DNA from: Chloroflexota bacterium
GTDB lineage: Bacteria; Chloroflexota; UBA11872; UBA12225; JAJDUF01
Direction: 5' to 3'
Assembly (NCBI GenBank): GCA_022824545.1
Contig: JAJDZR010000271.1
Span: 1-52,136 of the forward strand
DNA: 52,136 nucleotides
Part shown: one piece after another, positions 8,047 through 32,651 of the stretch
Layout: each line of letters begins with the position of its first letter
Position numbering within the stretch: position 1 is the first letter of the stretch
The notes under the pieces: model-generated
The model's database searches: none
Told to the model about the DNA's origin: nothing
Seen by the model: the letters and a program-made list of their open reading frames with translations, nothing else
Program-made: the position numbers and the translations under genes

Positions 8047-8979
8047 ATGGCACGGTATACGCAGGTGGCAACGGTTTCTTGGCGTGGTGGAACCGCCGGC
8101 GCGACGCCGGAGGAGAAGATCGCGGCCAATCGTGCCGGCCAGCTAGAGTTGGTCGAGCGCGCTTGTCTCGACCGGCCCGATTTCGTCTGCATGACCGAGG
8201 TCATTACCTGGTACGGGTTGGGCAAGGAGCACCTATCGCTCATCGCCGAGCCGCTCGACGGTCCCACCGTCCGGACCTTCGCGGAAGTGGCCCAGCGGCA
8301 CGCTTGCTATGTTGTTGTTCCAATCTACACGCAGGAAGACGGCCGTATCTTCAACTCCCAGGTGCTGCTCGACCGGCGCGGCGAGATCGCTGCCGCCTAT
8401 CACAAGATTCACCCGACGATTGGCGAAATCGAGATGGGGGTCACGCCGGGGACCGAGCCGGTGGTCGCGCACACCGACCAGGGCCGGGTGGGCTTTGCGA
8501 TCTGCTTCGATCTCAACTTCCGGGACGTGGCGGAAGGGAACGCGGCAGGTGGCGCGGAGCTAGTGTTTTTCTCCTCCATGTACCCCGGCGGACTACAGCT
8601 GCAAATCTGGGCGCACGACTTCGGAGTCTTCATCGCCTCGGCTACGCCCGGCGACCGGGCGCGGATCGTGGACCCGCTGGGGCGCGTGCTGACCGAGTCG
8701 GATGCGACGTATAACCCGATCCTATCCAAGCGGCTGAACCTGGACTATGCCGTCATGCACCTCTCGGAGAACTGCGCGCAGTTCGAGGCGATCAAGCGGA
8801 AGTACGGCGCGGGGATCGAGTTGGACGTGACGCGGCCGGAGGCGATCTTCTGTATGTACTCGCACCTGCCCGACGTGACCTGCGAGGATGTCATCGGGGA
8901 GTTCGAGTTGGAGCTGCGGACTCGCTACTATCGCCGCGCCAACCATATCCGCGCCGCGGCCCTCCCGCGCCGTAAGTAG
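8047..8979 (+). CDS. Carbon-nitrogen hydrolase family protein
   Basis: SD gggggagg with ATG at 8047. E-K-C context: FVCMTEV, YHKIHPT, GFAICFD. Confidence 0.8.
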   Translation: MARYTQVATVSWRGGTAGATPEEKIAANRAGQLELVERACLDRPDFVCMTEVITWYGLGKEHLSLIAEPLDGPTVRTFAEVAQRHACYVVVPIYTQEDGRIFNSQVLLDRRGEIAAAYHKIHPTIGEIEMGVTPGTEPVVAHTDQGRVGFAICFDLNFRDVAEGNAAGGAELVFFSSMYPGGLQLQIWAHDFGVFIASATPGDRARIVDPLGRVLTESDATYNPILSKRLNLDYAVMHLSENCAQFEAIKRKYGAGIELDVTRPEAIFCMYSHLPDVTCEDVIGEFELELRTRYYRRANHIRAAALPRRK

Positions 8980-9053
8980 GGGCCGCGCCTCACGTCCCGT
9001 CCCCGGAAACGATCATCCCATCGCCGCTCTGTGCTAGAGTAGGACAGCGGCTA

Positions 9054-9194
9054 CTCAGTACCAATGAGTTGCACGCCGGTGTCCCAGTGCTGCTGCCGCG
9101 AGGTGGTGGGAGTGGTGTATCTGTGCCCCCTCACGGTCAGCACTGGGATAGTGCGGTTCATTGGTACTGAGCCACAATCCCGACCGTGAGGGAG
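9054..9194 (+). promoter_or_regulatory. Structured 5' leader candidate: long imperfect inverted repeat plus a possible SD-sequestering pairing
   Basis: ctcagtaccaatga...tcccagtgctg (9054-9092) pairs with cagcactggga...tcattggtactgag (9138-9171). ccctcacggtc (9128-9138) is complementary to gaccgtgaggg (9182-9192), which overlaps the SD GAGGGAG of the 9202 ORF. Confidence 0.3.
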
Positions 9195-9201
9195 CTTCCT
9201 T

Positions 9202-9723
9202 GTGGATCAGATACCGTGGCTACTCATCGCCTTCATTGGATTTTTGCTCCTGCTGTTCCTACTCCGGGTGCTCGGATCGCCCTCGAATGACATTGAGGAT
9301 GAACTCGAGCAACTACAGGGGTATCGGAGAAGAGTTTCGCCACCCACCACCGAGCCAATAAGTACCTCGCCCAAGGACTGGAGCCGGCGCCAGCACCGCC
9401 TGGCGCATATGGGTGCGCCCTCGCCAGGTGCGCGGCAGCCAGTATGGCTGGCGAGGGCACGGCAGGAAGCTGGTATTCAGCGACCACCGGTGGATCACGC
9501 GAGCTCAGTGCAAGCGGTGGTGAACTCTGCTACCGCGAGCAACCAGCAGCGGAAGCACCGCCCCACGCTGCGCGTAGGGGTATACGGCCACCCTCCCTAC
9601 GACGATGACGCAGACCGGGAAGCAGAGATCGGAATGTCGCTTGCAGAGGAGTACCCCCCTGACGAGTATTTCCATGACACGGACTGGGATGACCACGACG
9701 TGGATTGGGGAGAGACAAAATGA
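9202..9723 (+). CDS. Hypothetical membrane-anchored protein: one N-terminal TM helix, a low-complexity middle, and an acidic D/E/W-rich tail
   Basis: GTG start 7 nt after GAGGGAG. TM helix IPWLLIAFIGFLLLLFLLRVL. Lies in a visibly lower-GC stretch. No family recognised. Confidence 0.5.
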   Translation: MDQIPWLLIAFIGFLLLLFLLRVLGSPSNDIEDELEQLQGYRRRVSPPTTEPISTSPKDWSRRQHRLAHMGAPSPGARQPVWLARARQEAGIQRPPVDHASSVQAVVNSATASNQQRKHRPTLRVGVYGHPPYDDDADREAEIGMSLAEEYPPDEYFHDTDWDDHDVDWGETK

Positions 9724-9905
9724 CAGGGATTGGAGATAACGCCAAATGTCAGGTCGAGCTTGCCTTCATGCGAAGGTTGCTCGACGACTACAGCACATCT
9801 CGCAAAGAAGGTGACAACTTCCAGGGATAAATTCGGAAACACGACGTACCGTGTCTTGACTAGACAAACTGACCCACGGCCGAGAGTCACGAAAGGGGAC
9901 TGCTC

Positions 9906-10286
9906 ATGACTGACTACCATCAGCAGGACGTAGCCCTGCTCGGAGGTCACTGGGAACGGCAGATGCACGATGCCATCACTGCCTGGAATGCTGTTGCTGC
10001 TAGACTGGGCACTCGTATCCAGTCACCGCCAGGCAACCATCTCTTGACAATCAGGCAGCGCATCGAGGCTTTGGACCAGGAGATGAAACAGCCACCAGCC
10101 TATATCAAGCCTCCAGAGGTATGGGGTCGGCTTGACAAGGGACTAGAAACCCAGATTCAGGTACTTGATGACATTCTCCGCAGCCCAAACCCAATAGCCT
10201 GGCTAGAGCGCCTAATCGAAGAAGACTCTGCGTCTCACGCTCACGCATTCGCTTCATCACCGGACGCCAGCGAGCATGAGCAATAG
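9906..10286 (+). CDS. Hypothetical protein, predicted helical, no family recognised
   Basis: ATG preceded by aaagggga. Lower-GC codon usage than the flanks. Confidence 0.45.
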   Translation: MTDYHQQDVALLGGHWERQMHDAITAWNAVAARLGTRIQSPPGNHLLTIRQRIEALDQEMKQPPAYIKPPEVWGRLDKGLETQIQVLDDILRSPNPIAWLERLIEEDSASHAHAFASSPDASEHEQ

Positions 10287-10520
10287 CCCAGTAGACCCTC
10301 TCCGAGACTTTGCTTAGGTTCAGGTGCGCTGGTGGTTCGAGAAGATCATGGCAAGGCGGCTATGAAACAGGCGCAGGGGTATTCCTAAATCAGTTGAGGA
10401 AGTGGAGGATAGAGGAAAACGATTGATAGAACTAGCTAGAGAAGAATGGTAGTGATGTACCAACATCACAATAGCAGCGAGTGGGCCGAGCAACTTGCTG
10501 GCCGCTATTAGGGAGTGGTC

Positions 10521-11336
10521 ATGGGCGAGTTCGCTGAACTCAGCCAAGAAGTCCGCGACATTTGGGACCGCAATGCCGCGTTCTGGGATGAGCGGATGGG
10601 CGAGGGCAACGACTGGCACCGGCAACTGATCGCGCCGGCGCAGGAGCGCCTGCTGGCATTGCAACGGGACGAGTTGGTGCTGGATGTTGCCTGCGGCAAT
10701 GGCCAGTTCGCGCGTCACATGGCCCGTCTCGGCGCACGGGTTCTTGCCTCGGACGTGGCTCCGCAGATGATCGAGCATGCGCGGGCACGGACTACCGAGC
10801 AGGCCGACCGCATCGAGTATCGCGTGCTCGACGCGACAAGCCGCGAGCAGCTGCTCGCCCTGGGAGAGCAACGCTTCGACGCTGCGGTGTGTACGATGGC
10901 GCTAATGGACATGGCCGCTATCGAGCCACTGCTGGCAGGGTTGAGCCGGCTGCTAAAGGTCGGTGGGCGGTTCGTGTTCTCGGTGCCCCATCCCTGCTTC
11001 AATGCCGCCGCCCCCCGCATGAGGAAGGCGGTGGAGATTGAGGAGCGGGACGGCGAGCTTGTCGCGGAGTATGCGATCAAGGTCTCGTCGTATATCCGAC
11101 CAGCCGCGGCGAAGGGGGTAGCAATGTTCGGCCAACCGGCGCTGCAATACTACTTCGAGCGACCGCTCAGTCTCCTGTTCGAGACATGCTTCCGGGCGGG
11201 CTTTGCCCTCGATGGCCTGCTCGAGCCGGTCTTCGAGCTGCCGCCGCGACCGGAGCGGCCCGGTAGCTGGGAAAATTACCCGGAAATCCCGCCGGTGCTC
11301 GTGGCCCGGATGCGGCTCCTGCCGTCGAGTTCGTAG
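10521..11336 (+). CDS. Class I SAM-dependent methyltransferase
   Basis: Motif I VLDVACGNGQFARHMARLGARVLASD. SD agggag 5 nt before the ATG at 10521. Confidence 0.85.
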   Translation: MGEFAELSQEVRDIWDRNAAFWDERMGEGNDWHRQLIAPAQERLLALQRDELVLDVACGNGQFARHMARLGARVLASDVAPQMIEHARARTTEQADRIEYRVLDATSREQLLALGEQRFDAAVCTMALMDMAAIEPLLAGLSRLLKVGGRFVFSVPHPCFNAAAPRMRKAVEIEERDGELVAEYAIKVSSYIRPAAAKGVAMFGQPALQYYFERPLSLLFETCFRAGFALDGLLEPVFELPPRPERPGSWENYPEIPPVLVARMRLLPSSS

Positions 11337-13857: not shown

Positions 13858-14007
13858 CTAACTAGGACGCCAGGCTGTTGGTATGGCGTGTGTACTGCCG
13901 TCCTCGCGCAGCCGTCACAATGCAGATCACGAACCTGGAGTGGCGCGGTAGTCTTTGCCATACCAGCTACTTACCGACACAGTATTGCCGCTACCCTATT
14001 TCCCGCC

Positions 14008-14274
14008 ATGAAGGATGATTCGCGTACTGCGACGCGCACGCCCAGCCGCCGCCGGCGCCGGCTCCAAACGATGCTGCGCTGGCAGGCGCTCGGCACGCGG
14101 CTGCTCGCGCTGCTGGCAGTGGTAGTGCTGCTCGGTGGCGGAGTAGCCTGGCTGATACGCGGCACCGGCAACCCGTTCATCGGGATCATGTTCCTGGTCT
14201 TGGGCCTCGTCCTCGTTGGCACGGTGATACTGTTCCTGCAAGTGCTACGGGTGATCGGCGGGCAGGAGCGGTGA
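14008..14274 (+). CDS. Small hypothetical membrane protein: Arg-rich N-terminus and two TM helices
   Basis: MKDDSRTATRTPSRRRRRLQ..., then LLALLAVVVLLGGGVAWLI and IMFLVLGLVLVGTVILFLQVL. The start is chosen within the longer track ORF. Confidence 0.4.
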   Translation: MKDDSRTATRTPSRRRRRLQTMLRWQALGTRLLALLAVVVLLGGGVAWLIRGTGNPFIGIMFLVLGLVLVGTVILFLQVLRVIGGQER

Positions 14275-14426
14275 GCGCGGTCGGTACTCTCTACCGCCCG
14301 GCGAGGCGGCAGTACCGCAAACGATGGGGTAGACTTGGGCCGCTGGCCCGGGCCAGGGAGACTTGATGAACCACACCGCGATGTGCGGATGCAGTGCCGG
14401 AGATGCTTTCAGTTGGGAGCAGTGAC

Positions 14427-15695
14427 ATGATTACCTCGCTCCGGCTCGTCAATTTCAAGAACTTTGCCGATGAGACCCTCCCCGTTGGCCCATTCACGGT
14501 GATCGTGGGCACGAACGCCAGCGGCAAGAGCAATATCCGTGACGCCTTCCGATTCCTGCATGGCATCGGTCGCGGCTATACGCTGTCGGAAATTTTCGGT
14601 GGAAAGTACGGTCCCGGTGGCCAGCTGGAGTGGGCCGGTATTCGCGGCGCAACGAACGAGATCGTCCGCTTCGGGCAACCGGGTTTCTCGATTGAGGTTG
14701 AGGCAGATCCGTTCATTTATTCGATCACGGTTGGTGATGATCGGAAGAGTCCGGATCTATTTCGGGTCGAGAGAGAAGAGCTTAGAGTAAAGTATCGTCC
14801 GATTTACACGAGCCACCCGGGTGTTGGTGACCCTGTTCATGCACAACGTGACGATAGATACCTACTACTTCGCATGGCAAGGACCGGGGAGAAAAGGAAG
14901 TACGGCCATCGAGTCCAGGTGAGGTGGGATCAACCCGCACTAACCCAACTCCGGGATCACCGAAAGGTAGTGCGAGATCATAAGGTTCTCGCCGAATTTG
15001 TGATCAATGGTTTTGCCAATGCACGCTTCCTTGATCTTGTACCGGACCTTATGCGACAGCCCGCTTTCCCCGGCCAAATCATATTGGGCGACAGCGGCGA
15101 GAACTTGCCGACAGTGCTGCGGGAGATCTGCGCCGATCCGCAGCGCAAGGAAACGCTGGCCGCGTGGACCCGCGAACTGACACCGATGGACGTGCGGGAC
15201 TTCGAGTTTCCGACTGACCCGATCACCGGCCGAGTCCAGCTCGTTATTCGGGAAGCGAACGACCGAGCGGTATCCGCATACGGTGCTTCGGACGGCACGC
15301 TGCGCTTTCTCACCACGCTGGCTGCGCTGCTGGGCAAGAACCCGGCCGGTCTCTATTTCTTCGAGGAGATTGACAACGGCATTCATCCTTCGCGGATGCG
15401 GCTGTTGATTGACCTGATCGAAGGACAAACTGCAAAGGGTGAGAGTCAGGTGGTCACTACTACGCATTCACCTGACCTGCTGGCGTTGGTCAACGACAAG
15501 ACGTTTGAGACTACCTCCGTCGTATACCGTGATGAAGACTCGGCTGACGGCATAATTCGCCCCGTGGCGAAACTGCCCAAAGCCCGAGAGCTACGGCGGA
15601 GCCAGGGCCTCGGACGCCTGCACACAACGGGCTGGATGGAAGACATACTCGCCTTCTCGGAGGAGGCAAACAAAGACGGGGAGAATGGAGAGTGA
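14427..15695 (+). CDS. ABC/SMC-like AAA ATPase (AAA_15/AAA_21 type)
   Basis: N-terminal LRLVNFKNF, Walker A GTNASGKSN, signature-like ASDGTLRFL, Walker B LYFFEEIDNGIHP, H-loop TTTHSPDLL. Visibly lower GC than the flanks. Confidence 0.85.
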   Translation: MITSLRLVNFKNFADETLPVGPFTVIVGTNASGKSNIRDAFRFLHGIGRGYTLSEIFGGKYGPGGQLEWAGIRGATNEIVRFGQPGFSIEVEADPFIYSITVGDDRKSPDLFRVEREELRVKYRPIYTSHPGVGDPVHAQRDDRYLLLRMARTGEKRKYGHRVQVRWDQPALTQLRDHRKVVRDHKVLAEFVINGFANARFLDLVPDLMRQPAFPGQIILGDSGENLPTVLREICADPQRKETLAAWTRELTPMDVRDFEFPTDPITGRVQLVIREANDRAVSAYGASDGTLRFLTTLAALLGKNPAGLYFFEEIDNGIHPSRMRLLIDLIEGQTAKGESQVVTTTHSPDLLALVNDKTFETTSVVYRDEDSADGIIRPVAKLPKARELRRSQGLGRLHTTGWMEDILAFSEEANKDGENGE

Positions 15696-16246
15696 ACGTC
15701 ATTGTGATCCCTGAAGACTTTCGCAAGGACCAATACATCCTCAAGCCGCTGTTCTCTCGTCTTTTCAGACGTCTTGGCACCCGTTCCGTAAGAGTTCGGG
15801 TTTGTCAGGACCCTTTGCTTGGGGGTATTGACGAAGCGCTGAAATTGGAGCGCTTGCAGGAAGTCATCGAACGATACCCGATGGTGGATGTTTTCATATT
15901 GTGTGTTGATCGTGATGGAATCGTTCAGAGACGTCAACGGCTCGACCGGATTGAAGAGGAATTCGGATCGTCGTTCTTTGCCGAAAGTGCCTGGGAAGAG
16001 CTTGAGACTTGGGTGTTGGCTGGGCTGGACCTGCCCAGTGAGTGGCACTGGGGCAATGTTCGAGCAGAAGTCGAGGTCAAGGAACATTACTTTGATCCGC
16101 TTGTAGCGCAACGCGGCCTATCCGACTCGCCTGGGGGTGGCCGAAAGGTCTTGGGAGAAGAAGCATCGCGCCGTATTGGTGCTATCCGCCAGAAATGTCC
16201 CGATGATTTTGATGCCTTGGTCCGGCGGCTCGGAGCAGCCGTCTGA
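15692..16246 (+). CDS. Small TOPRIM-like protein (DUF4276-like), partner of the upstream ATPase
   Basis: GTG start overlaps the ATPase stop (GTGA). N-terminal VIVIPEDFRKD (conserved Glu) and FILCVDRDG (DxD) fit a TOPRIM-type acidic site. 184 aa. Confidence 0.65.
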   Translation: MNVIVIPEDFRKDQYILKPLFSRLFRRLGTRSVRVRVCQDPLLGGIDEALKLERLQEVIERYPMVDVFILCVDRDGIVQRRQRLDRIEEEFGSSFFAESAWEELETWVLAGLDLPSEWHWGNVRAEVEVKEHYFDPLVAQRGLSDSPGGGRKVLGEEASRRIGAIRQKCPDDFDALVRRLGAAV

Positions 16247-16261
16247 GCGAGGGAAACGAGA

Positions 16262-27023: not shown

Positions 27024-27163
27024 GGCCGGCCCTCCAGTGGTGCCGCACCTCGCGGTGTCGTTGTGCCATGACTCGGTAGGCTGATGGTACAGTGAGGATA
27101 GCAGCCTGTGACTACTGAGAGACCAAGCACGCAATGTAGGACGTACCTACCGGGAGGCAAGCG

Positions 27164-27409
27164 ATGGGCAAGAACGAGTTGCTGGATCGCATCTCCATTG
27201 ATCCACGCATTTGTCATGGCAAGCCGTGTATTCGCGGTACGCGCATCTTTGTTTCTATCATTCTGGATAATCTTGCTGCTGGGATTGCTGAGGCGGAATT
27301 GCTTGCTGCCTATCCCCCACTTACCTCCCAAGACATACAGGCTGCATTGGTCTACGCTGCGGAGTTAGCTCGTGAGCGCTGGGTGCCCATTGCCGTCGAG
27401 GGGACATAA
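27164..27409 (+). CDS. DUF433 domain protein (antitoxin-like partner of DUF5615)
   Basis: ISIDPRICHGKPCIRGTRI is the DUF433 signature. SD gggagg. Confidence 0.85.
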   Translation: MGKNELLDRISIDPRICHGKPCIRGTRIFVSIILDNLAAGIAEAELLAAYPPLTSQDIQAALVYAAELARERWVPIAVEGT

Positions 27410-27784
27410 GTGCGGTGCAAGCTAGATGAAAACCTAGCGCCAGAATTGGTCCGACTTTTCAGGGAGGCGGGTCATGAGGCGGCTTCAGTTCGGGATCAGG
27501 AGTTACAGGGTGCTTTGGACGGTACGCTCTGGAGAGTCTGTCAGATTGAGCAGCGATGTTTAGTGACCTTGGACCTGGACTTTGCCAACCCCTTGGCGTA
27601 TCCACCGGCAGGTACTCCAGGGATTATCGTACTTCGGCCACCGAAAGCGCTACTGCCGCTCGTCCGTAGACTTATCCAACAGGTCTTGGACTACGTCGAG
27701 AAAGAGACGGTCGAGAGCCGCCTCTGGATTGCGGAGGTAGGCCGCATTCGTATCTACGATCCTGCCGAGGAGACACTTTCTTGA
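27410..27784 (+). CDS. DUF5615 family PIN-like protein (toxin-like)
   Basis: KLDENL...VTLDLDF pattern. It starts immediately after the DUF433 stop. Confidence 0.8.
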   Translation: MRCKLDENLAPELVRLFREAGHEAASVRDQELQGALDGTLWRVCQIEQRCLVTLDLDFANPLAYPPAGTPGIIVLRPPKALLPLVRRLIQQVLDYVEKETVESRLWIAEVGRIRIYDPAEETLS

Positions 27785-31988: not shown

Positions 31989-32651
31989 ATGGGTCAATTC
32001 AGCAAAATCCGTCTGCCGCAAGGCCAGGCGTGGCGGGGAGCGGTGATTGTCGTCGTCGTCTTGGTCTTGCTGGTCGGCACACTTATCGCGCTGAATCTCA
32101 CCTTGACCGGCACAGGCAGGCTCAAGGACCTGGCCAGTGTGATCCAATCGGTTGTCACCGCTTTTGCACTCATAGTAGGCGGTATCTTTGCCGCATATAA
32201 ATGGCAGGTCTTCAGAGAGGCCGAGCCGCATCTCACTATAGACAACAAGGTGTCACACCGGCGCATCGGTGACGGCTACGTCCACATTGCCGTGACCGCA
32301 ACCTTGCACAACAGTTCGAAGGTCAAGATGGAGTTTCGTGAAGCATTCTTCCTTCTGCAGCAGATTTCGCCAGTATCGGATGAAGAGATCGAAAGGTTAT
32401 ACGACCAGGCATACACTGGTGAAGAACAAGGGGACCTGCAGTGGCCTACGCTTGACGAAACCCTTCGCACATGGCGCGACAATGAATTAATCGTAGAACC
32501 AGGAGAGTCACATCAGGAAATATGGGAATTCATAGTATCTAAGGATGTTGAGTCGGTTATGATCTACACATACTTCTATAATTCGAGATTGCCTCAAGTT
32601 CCCCAAGGTTGGGGGGCAACGACGGTCCTTGATATAGTGACCCGTGGCTAA
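31989..32651 (+). CDS. Hypothetical 2-TM membrane protein with a ~150-aa C-terminal soluble domain; strongly AT-shifted gene
   Basis: TM1 AVIVVVVLVLLVGTLIALNL, TM2 VVTAFALIVGGIFAAY, then strand-like segments (YVHIAVTATLHN, VKMEFREAFFLL, VMIYTYFYN). No family recognised. Confidence 0.6.
   Translation: MGQFSKIRLPQGQAWRGAVIVVVVLVLLVGTLIALNLTLTGTGRLKDLASVIQSVVTAFALIVGGIFAAYKWQVFREAEPHLTIDNKVSHRRIGDGYVHIAVTATLHNSSKVKMEFREAFFLLQQISPVSDEEIERLYDQAYTGEEQGDLQWPTLDETLRTWRDNELIVEPGESHQEIWEFIVSKDVESVMIYTYFYNSRLPQVPQGWGATTVLDIVTRG

Follow-up and report, generated by a model that had tools for sequence, protein, structure and literature searches.

What does a compact gene pair of low G+C content do when it stands among the ordinary genes of a Chloroflexota bacterium? 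The pair in question lies within contig JAJDZR010000271.1 (assembly GCA_022824545.1); the whole stretch analysed, 52,136 nucleotides (nt) in length, is referred to below as the window. Two co-directional open reading frames (ORFs) make up the pair, gene A (14427-15695, 422 amino acids, aa) and gene B (15692-16246, 184 aa). Both are real genes and not chance ORFs, because 4118 homologous clusters exist for A and 3071 for B. An original prediction, made from the letters of the sequence, had given these coordinates and lengths, together with four ABC motifs in A and a GTGA overlap between the genes, and every one of them was found where it had been placed.

The answer that we favour is that A and B form a mobile two-gene defence module, an OLD-type ABC ATPase with a separate small Toprim-like nuclease, which would work in the manner of PARIS. 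We regard this as probable, while leaving considerable room for doubt. The nearest catalogued relatives of the pair are Mad3/Mad4 and the PADLOC system HEC-01 ('Hma-embedded candidate 01'), defined as an ABC ATPase, HEC-01A, with a partner, HEC-01B (Payne et al., bioRxiv 10.1101/2024.01.29.577857).

The ATPase

By sequence and predicted structure, gene A encodes an SMC/OLD-class ABC ATPase with intact catalytic motifs, as the original assignment to the SMC/ABC type had it. The protein matches the Pfam hidden Markov models (HMMs) AAA_21 (E 1e-31), AAA_15 and SMC_N, and a Foldseek search with its AlphaFold2 (AF2) model (mean predicted local distance difference test score, pLDDT, 83; predicted template modelling score, pTM, 0.86) returned the ATPase heads of SMC, Rad50, PtuA and OLD proteins at E values of ∼1e-13 to 1e-11. 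RecN-like heads are included among its weak NCBIfam matches. The best PADLOC match is PDC-M07A (E 9.4e-60), which covers residues 1-409 of the 422, and is followed by HEC-01A (2e-34, 117 bits), AriA (5e-32), mad3 (3e-24) and AbiLi (8e-24). When 52 homologs were aligned, all four ABC motifs (Walker A, signature, Walker B and H-loop) proved to be invariant or nearly so.

The second point to note concerns the part of A that is not conserved. The model has a beta-rich insert, with strands over residues 86-166 and a helix at 183-197, and no long coiled coil. Across 75 loci, the majority-residue conservation of residues ∼81-200 is 0.32-0.53, compared with 0.7-0.97 in the ABC core. Variation is thus concentrated in the insert of A while B is uniformly conserved, which is the pattern expected for a diversifying sensor paired with a fixed effector.

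The small partner

Gene B belongs to a large family, whose 3071 clusters at 90% identity reduce to 551 representatives at 50% identity. When 60 of its members, down to 34% identity, were aligned, E8, D13 and E105 proved invariant, and D73, R74, D75, R80, E103, W107, K130, E131, R151 and C169 at least 90% conserved. The AF2 model of B (pLDDT 87.6, pTM 0.82) consists of four beta-alpha units followed by a helical C-terminus, with strand beta1 at residues 2-7 and beta3 at residues 67-72, and this order of secondary structure elements fits that of Toprim domains, whose three-layer alpha/beta fold has a 2-1-3-4 parallel sheet.

Searches with the 60 relatives place the family more closely. DUF4276 (PF14103) is matched by 33 of them, with a best E value of 2e-7, and one HEC-01B model is matched by 18, the best HEC-01B E value over all models being 1.6e-6. 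Smaller numbers match RloB (seven, weakly), mad4 (four) and AbiLii (one), the best E value for RloB and AbiLii being ∼0.002. We also compared the B family by hhalign with a profile built from the family of HEC-01B sequences in the supplement of Payne et al. The two align over columns 2-130 (E 1.2e-3, probability 19.5%), with E8, D73xD75 and E103xE105 of B in register with the HEC-01B motifs and the DxD falling on D66-Q-D68. Searches of PDB sequences with window B and with the B-family profile returned noise only. At the level of structure, a search of the viral models in BFVD gave an RloB-like protein as the best structural match among its top matches (rank 2, TMq 0.54, probability 1.0).

DUF4276 and RloB have been placed in the Toprim superfamily on the same Glu and DxD positions (PMC12065111). 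Since the assignment was made on exactly those positions, the most fitting description of B is that of a divergent sister lineage of DUF4276, which resembles Toprim proteins in its motifs and topology and has no significant match among solved structures. From its motifs and model, B is predicted to be a metal-dependent nuclease effector.

A further suggestion, which we put forward as rather unlikely, is that the B family constitutes a functionally distinct Toprim-like effector lineage on a PDC-M07A-type chassis, invisible to existing models. At 90% identity the family has over 3,000 clusters, and it keeps 55-95% identity across some ten phyla. If this were true, the pair may respond to another trigger, or cut another substrate, than the HEC-01 pairs with which it can reside, and each Hma locus would be a set of paralogous ATPase-nuclease sensors whose effectors can be exchanged.

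Conservation across genomes

A scan of 185,579 species genomes, one genome per species, yielded 333 loci, of which the best 80 were used to count phyla and to determine the adjacency of the two genes. These 80 loci come from about ten phyla in all, among them Chloroflexota, Latescibacterota, Binatia, Acidobacteriota, Alpha- and Gammaproteobacteria, Gemmatimonadota, Nitrospirota, Rhodothermia and Actinomycetota; record names alone suggest that several derive from sponge-associated metagenome bins. In every one of the 80, an A homolog lies directly upstream of B on the same strand, so that the proposed check on conservation of the pair came out clearly in its favour. The translational coupling that had been predicted from the window is also a property of the family, a 4-nt ATGA or GTGA overlap occurring at the A/B junction in 81 of 83 loci. 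The two genes co-evolve, with correlated distances (Mantel r 0.62, p 0.001), and the mean pairwise identity of B (0.67) exceeds that of A (0.57).

Some copies of the pair are decayed, each with B intact. Gene A is interrupted by inserts of ∼1.2-1.3 kb in L031 (7377-10004) and L073 (7538-10004), and is fragmented in L004/L005 (8758-10004) and L045 (8761-10004). Loci L004 and L005 are two copies on one contig (CBDDDS010000003.1), ∼16.7 kb apart, inverted and with identical local gene maps, which points to an inverted duplication or, alternatively, to an artefact of the assembly.

Association with Hma loci

A recurrent link to a known defence system is that with Hma. In 23 of 83 loci the pair sits between HmaB (DUF1156 methylase, 1e-111) and HmaC (DUF499 ATPase, 6e-76) on the same strand, and 14 of these 23 also have HmaA (SNF2 helicase, 3e-121) upstream. 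Two further loci have HmaC only. It was on the basis of such an 'embedded' arrangement inside Hma that HEC-01 was defined, and the Hma loci often carry canonical HEC-01 pairs as well (HEC-01A 6e-191, HEC-01B 2e-47). Because both types occur in the same loci, the window-type pair is a paralogous lineage, present alongside HEC-01 and not in its stead. Where it is embedded in Hma, the pair probably acts as a second-line effector. Co-occurrence with defence loci, which had been proposed as a check, is found in part of the family, while the window itself has no defence neighbours.

Several other arrangements were seen in the Hma loci. There may be two or three tandem pairs of an ABC ATPase and a small protein in a single locus, with the window type beside canonical HEC-01A/B (L008:8751-12361; L034:8697-13337; L019:3395-10564; L012:8751-14484), and in some loci another HEC-01-like pair fills the slot between HmaA and HmaB. 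Hma-like loci of Latescibacterota (L013:133-3789, and similarly L017 and L019) have upstream, at the position expected for HmaA, a protein of ∼1,100-1,200 aa with no Pfam or PADLOC match. An ORF of ∼83 aa occupies the 257-nt gap between HmaB and A in L009, L013, L017 and L019, at about 8497-8760.

This association raises the possibility that the pair is a dependent accessory of Hma-type systems, a guard or backup effector which monitors the integrity of Hma and is set off by phage inhibition of that system, in the way that PrrC guards EcoprrI. On this view the standalone copy in the window would be an orphan that by itself does little or nothing. That 28% of the loci have the pair strictly between HmaB and HmaC is what such a role predicts; OLD-ABC/Toprim dyads have been interpreted as a backup effector layer (PMC12839542), and Mad3/Mad4 likewise act inside a larger system. 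However, 70% of the loci (58/83), the window and its close relatives included, have no Hma gene within 10 kb, and these standalone copies retain intact ORFs, motifs and the 4-nt overlap, with B strongly constrained everywhere. We consequently judge dependence on Hma to be improbable.

Mobility

The pair is a horizontally acquired islet of low G+C content among ordinary genes. In the window, G+C is 0.54-0.59 over 14500-16250 compared with 0.62-0.69 in the flanks, and the G+C content at third codon positions (GC3) is 0.65 in gene A and 0.55 in gene B compared with 0.73-0.81 in the immediately flanking genes, which encode an MrfA-type DEAD/MZB helicase on the left and PdxA. The earlier view of an acquired islet between the helicase region and pdxA is upheld by both measures and by the ordinary character of the neighbours. 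The same is seen across the family, where the G+C content of the pair is below that of its flanks in 77 of 79 loci, by 5.9 points on average.

Identity is only slightly greater within phyla (A 0.59, B 0.69) than between them (A 0.55, B 0.66), and some cross-phylum pairs are 90-95% identical, to which mis-binning of metagenome-assembled genomes could contribute. The neighbours vary from locus to locus and include LepA, Rieske, TPP-enzyme, AcrB and enolase-family genes, and one copy lies near an integrase on a Brasilonema megaplasmid. Close relatives of the window copy (∼88% identity) keep the pair beside pdxA; one of them, L082, has a different left flank, without the helicase. The search for flanking direct or inverted repeats (attachment sites or target-site duplications) produced short chance matches only, none of which brackets the module in the window. 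When empty sites were sought by comparing the PdxA of the window with metagenome contigs, none could be defined, for the best relative was only 56% identical and none carried the pair.

A mobile pair of this kind might also be a selfish addiction module, similar to a toxin-antitoxin system, in which A serves as the ATP-dependent antidote to a toxic nuclease, B, with no immune benefit to the host. It would persist by post-segregational killing and horizontal transfer. A patchy distribution driven by horizontal transfer, low G+C content, the megaplasmid copy near an integrase and the existence of decayed copies would all suit such an element, and Pfam names AAA_21 a 'putative AbiEii toxin, Type IV TA system' domain. 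It is nevertheless hard to explain by addiction alone why the pair is embedded time and again at one specific position of a defence system, next to further defence cassettes. The hypervariable insert of A suggests an arms race with outside targets, and a related member of the class has given phage protection, a cold-seep representative of HEC-01 having protected Escherichia coli against at least one of T4, T5 and T7 (PMC12881386). On balance we think it improbable that the pair is an addiction module, and retain defence as the function that best accounts for the pair.

Proposed mechanism and its weight

The mechanism that we propose for the defence module is modelled on PARIS, whose own mechanism is established (PMC11464382, PMC12839542). 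The original prediction had drawn the same parallel with split-OLD systems, and this still appears to be the best analogy. A and B would be made in fixed proportion from their coupled operon and would form a complex that holds B inactive. The hypervariable, beta-rich insert of A may then recognise a trigger from the invader, which could be a phage protein (for example an anti-restriction factor) or an abnormal nucleic-acid structure. Binding or hydrolysis of ATP at the site formed by Walker A, Walker B, the signature and the H-loop would lead to a conformational change that releases or activates B. The acidic cluster of B (E8, D73, D75, E103 and E105) is predicted to bind a divalent metal and to cut nucleic acid, the putative target being either tRNA of the host, which AriB cleaves, or DNA, the substrate of OLD and GajA. 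Infection would be stopped, probably at the cost of the infected cell, so that the pair would provide abortive infection or a backup layer of defence.

The results on related systems bear on this proposal. The statement in the original prediction that pairs of an ATPase and a DUF4276 protein had no demonstrated function is out of date, given the phage protection by HEC-01 described above and the finding that deletion of mad3 or mad4 weakens MADS defence. It has also been found that mad5 can be deleted only together with mad2 or mad3.

A number of observations weigh against the proposal. The HEC-01 of P. agarici gave no protection in the original screen. Annotation of the neighbours with Pfam and PADLOC revealed no defence genes next to the pair in the window. 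The window B protein has no match in Pfam, PADLOC (E ≤ 1), NCBIfam or PHROGs, so that its earlier description as TOPRIM-like or DUF4276-like holds for the family, through the relatives that match DUF4276 and the motifs in register with HEC-01B, and does not hold for this one sequence. As judged from these sequence comparisons, the link between B and DUF4276 is transitive and its profile-profile score weak. The Foldseek comparison of the B model with the PDB yielded no significant match and no Toprim or OLD structure in the top 50, so that solved structures lend the fold expected of B in the original prediction no independent confirmation. Finally, no copy of the pair was found in 2.9 million viral contigs (IMG/VR) or 50,697 phage records (INPHARED), unlike PARIS.

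Could B then be something other than a nuclease? It might be a Rossmann- or flavodoxin-like binder, a phosphatase-like enzyme or an adaptor, which controls the ATPase or couples it to some other effector. The best PDB folds for the model are generic, flavodoxin-like alpha/beta structures, including lumazine synthase and the low-molecular-weight and arginine phosphatases, and the only direct match to a Toprim HMM came from one of the 60 relatives, at an E value of 0.13. In addition, the invariant R74, R80/R81, K130 and R151 could bind phosphate. Set against this, the PDB matches are themselves not significant (E at least 0.009, template modelling scores of 0.3-0.4), and the invariant acidic residues stand exactly at the Toprim Glu, DxD and post-beta4 positions, where they align with DUF4276/HEC-01B. 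The relatives, moreover, match DUF4276, RloB and AbiLii. A non-nuclease B therefore seems to us no more probable than an addiction module, and we continue to favour a nuclease effector.

It is very improbable that the pair is a housekeeping DNA-repair or chromosome-maintenance ATPase and nuclease (RecF-, SbcCD- or RecN-like) linked to the adjacent MrfA-type helicase, as the resemblance of the A fold to Rad50, SMC and RecN heads and the identity of the left neighbour might suggest, since there are only 333 loci in the 185,579 species genomes, the contexts vary (L082 having no helicase neighbour), and the composition is foreign, with cross-phylum transfer and frequent embedding in Hma.

Features and setting in the window

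The positions of the features of the pair are collected in Table 1. An alternative in-frame GTG upstream, at 14394, would give a gene A product of 433 aa; this start is unlikely, because a Shine-Dalgarno sequence precedes the ATG at 14427 and the homologs begin at MITSLRL.

Table 1. Positions of the genes, translation signals and protein motifs of the pair in the window
Feature	Position	Strand	Basis
Gene A, ABC ATPase (AAA_21/AAA_15/SMC_N), PDC-M07A-like, predicted sensor/motor subunit	14427..15695	+	ORF, HMM matches, AF2 model, Foldseek
Gene B, DUF4276-like (Toprim-like), predicted metal-dependent nuclease effector	15692..16246	+	Relatives' HMM matches, hhalign, AF2 model, viral fold match
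Shine-Dalgarno GGGAG, 7 nt 5' of the gene A ATG (14427)	14414..14418	+	Direct sequence reading
Shine-Dalgarno GGGGAG of gene B, 8 nt 5' of the GTG	15678-15683	+	Sequence
GTGA start/stop overlap, gene B GTG over gene A TGA; predicted translational coupling	15692..15695	+	Sequence; 4-nt overlap family-wide
Walker A/P-loop GTNASGKSN, A residues 28-36	14508..14534	+	G28 and N30-N36 invariant in 52 homologs
Hypervariable beta-rich insert, A residues ∼81-200; candidate trigger-sensing surface	14667..15026	+	Conservation across 75 loci; model
ABC signature ASDGTLRFL, A residues 287-295	15285..15311	+	S288-R293 invariant in 52 homologs
Walker B FFEEID, A residues 311-316	15357..15374	+	E313 and E314 invariant in 52 homologs
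H-loop TTHSPDLL, A residues 345-352	15459..15482	+	Motif reading and 52-homolog alignment
VIVIPED, B residues 3-9; E8 right after strand beta1 (Toprim Glu position)	15698..15718	+	Alignment, model
CVDRDG, B residues 71-76; D73-x-D75 right after strand beta3 (Toprim DxD position)	15902..15919	+	Alignment, model, hhalign
WEELETW of B; E103-x-E105 right after strand beta4, aligning with ELEAF of HEC-01B/DUF4276	15992..16012	+	Alignment, hhalign

Besides the helicase and PdxA, the neighbours in the window encode a CN-hydrolase, a SAM methyltransferase, a glycosyltransferase, a GAF-HD protein and a GNAT protein. The MrfA helicase and the methyltransferase were considered as defence genes and rejected, their PADLOC matches being generic and at the level of domains. 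The window itself is not a defence island, and the pair stands alone there. A scan for promoters and terminators gave signals at chance level, and no tRNA genes that might serve as integration sites are present in the window.

Directly 5' of gene A there is an ORF of 88 aa with two predicted transmembrane helices (14008-14274, the internal-Met reading of the ORF 13888-14274). Its conservation is 90-92% in the two closest relatives, and none of the other 80 loci has it; L082 retains it beside the pair in spite of a different flank further left. Its presence in only the two closest relatives led us to reject it as a third component of the system.

The window contains a second insert of low G+C content (0.53-0.61), ∼1.5 kb long, at 8980-10508 between the CN-hydrolase and methyltransferase genes. 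Its ORFs, 9202-9723 (173 aa) and 9906-10286 (126 aa), have no Pfam or PADLOC match, and a close relative, L081, has only 147 bp at the same place. The ORFs 27108-27784 and 31989-32651, with GC3 values of 0.58-0.60 compared with ∼0.8 in their neighbours, may be other acquired genes.

Significance

The value of the finding lies in closing a gap in annotation, in an example of effector exchange and in a clean experimental target. PADLOC would see an orphan PDC-M07A here and no complete system, and Pfam and NCBIfam leave B unannotated. Because current annotation tools would not call the pair, it is under-counted among the defence systems listed for Chloroflexota, Latescibacterota, Binatia, Acidobacteriota and uncultured groups like them. 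The pair also represents a natural swap of effectors on one ATPase lineage, predicted to be PIN-like in PDC-M07 and Toprim-like here. For experiments, the B family offers a small and well-conserved Toprim-like effector with a clear set of residues to mutate (E8, D73, D75, E103 and E105), and the insert mapped in A offers a possible determinant of specificity. No new category is opened, as both the dyad of an ABC ATPase with a Toprim protein and its embedding in Hma- or BREX-related loci have been described before.

Comparison with known systems

HEC-01 resembles the window pair in layout. The gene order is the same, an ATPase of ∼400 aa followed by a small protein of ∼190 aa, and the small partners share the motif series E...DxD...ExE; HEC-01B is annotated in RefSeq as a 'DUF4276 family protein'. 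Both kinds of pair occupy the niche between hma genes and also occur outside Hma. They differ in that window B matches no HEC-01B or DUF4276 model, and its C-terminal helical part is distinct, the alignment being limited to residues 2-130. Window A is nearer to PDC-M07A, with an HEC-01A score of 2e-34 compared with 6e-191 for canonical HEC-01A proteins, and BLASTP against the HEC-01A of P. agarici gave local matches only.

PDC-M07 is defined as the cassette FAM_00005>>FAM_01367, in which FAM_00005 is the ATPase family of HEC-01 and HEC-02 (Payne et al., supplement). A true PDC-M07 is found on pAQU1 of Photobacterium damselae (L164:6001-7777), inside a type I restriction-modification operon of the order HsdM-HsdS-[A-B]-HsdR, where A scores 1e-206 and B 9e-75 on the PDC-M07B models. 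The window pair shares this ATPase lineage, though distantly (9.4e-60 compared with 1e-206 for the true member), and PDC-M07, too, is a cassette of two genes housed in a restriction-type system. The partner, however, is not the same. The passages of the preprint text and supplement available to us (10.1101/2024.01.29.577857) do not describe the nature of PDC-M07B; that of pAQU1 is a PIN-like protein of 161 aa (IIDTS...SLDSD), in contrast to the Toprim-like partner of the window pair. Identification of B as PDC-M07B was rejected, since neither B nor any of the 60 relatives matches its models and hhalign gave a probability of 2.7%. Because the true PDC-M07B is PIN-like and window B is DUF4276-like, the effector differs on a related ATPase chassis.

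PARIS, an AriA ABC ATPase with the DUF4435 Toprim nuclease AriB, supplies the mechanistic template of a sensor scaffold, release of a nuclease and tRNA cleavage (PMC11464382, PMC12839542). The AriA models match A (5e-32 and 8.5e-18), with the best stretches confined to the generic blocks 278-353 and 1-44, and no AriA chain appears among the PDB sequence matches of A or its top 50 fold matches. With its 184 aa, B has roughly half the mass of the 35-kDa AriB, and it resembles DUF4276 and not DUF4435; neither B nor its 60 relatives match AriB or DUF4435 in Pfam and PADLOC. The earlier remark that B does not look like DUF4435 or RloB is therefore correct for DUF4435 and less so for RloB, to which the viral fold match and the seven weakly matching relatives point. 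PARIS is also typically carried by phages or satellites, whereas the window family was found in none of the viral collections searched.

The Mad3/Mad4 pair of MADS, an 8-gene methylation-associated system, again combines an ABC ATPase with a DUF4276-type protein, and it is linked to window A by the match to mad3 (3e-24) and to the B family by the four of 60 relatives that match mad4. On the NCBIfam MAD3 equivalog NF047739, however, A scores 91.4 bits, far below the cut-off of 420. None of the other mad genes is present in the window, the mad2 match of 10515-11336 being to a generic methyltransferase domain.

AbiL (AbiLi/AbiLii) and Rlo (AAA_21 with RloB), pairs of type I restriction-modification loci, share with the window pair the combination of an ATPase and a small Toprim-like partner, often in restriction loci, and are linked to it by the AbiLi match of A (8e-24) and the RloB-like viral fold match of B. 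The sequence links of the B family to them are marginal (best E ∼0.002), and window B matches neither model. OLD, Gabija GajA and HEC-04 contain the same two catalytic modules, and the fold of A matches the OLD protein of T. scotoductus (6P74). In those proteins one polypeptide holds both modules, and its Toprim_OLD domain is canonical, whereas the modules of the window pair are two ORFs, each with its own start and Shine-Dalgarno sequence.

The window pair was first put forward as a candidate uncharacterised system, and this part of the original prediction, whose structural reading holds for the most part, is not supported. The refuting outcome that it named, a match to a system with a name, has come about in part, as A matches models of PDC-M07A and HEC-01A. 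Moreover, the combination of an ABC ATPase with DUF4276 is PADLOC HEC-01, and 'TOPRIM-linked OLD-ABC' dyads in Hma/BREX-related loci have been described (PMC12839542). The pair is not a new kind of system, its class being already catalogued; within the known class of ABC ATPase plus DUF4276/Toprim, of the HEC-01-like type, it represents a divergent lineage that lacks annotation and is not detected by current family models.

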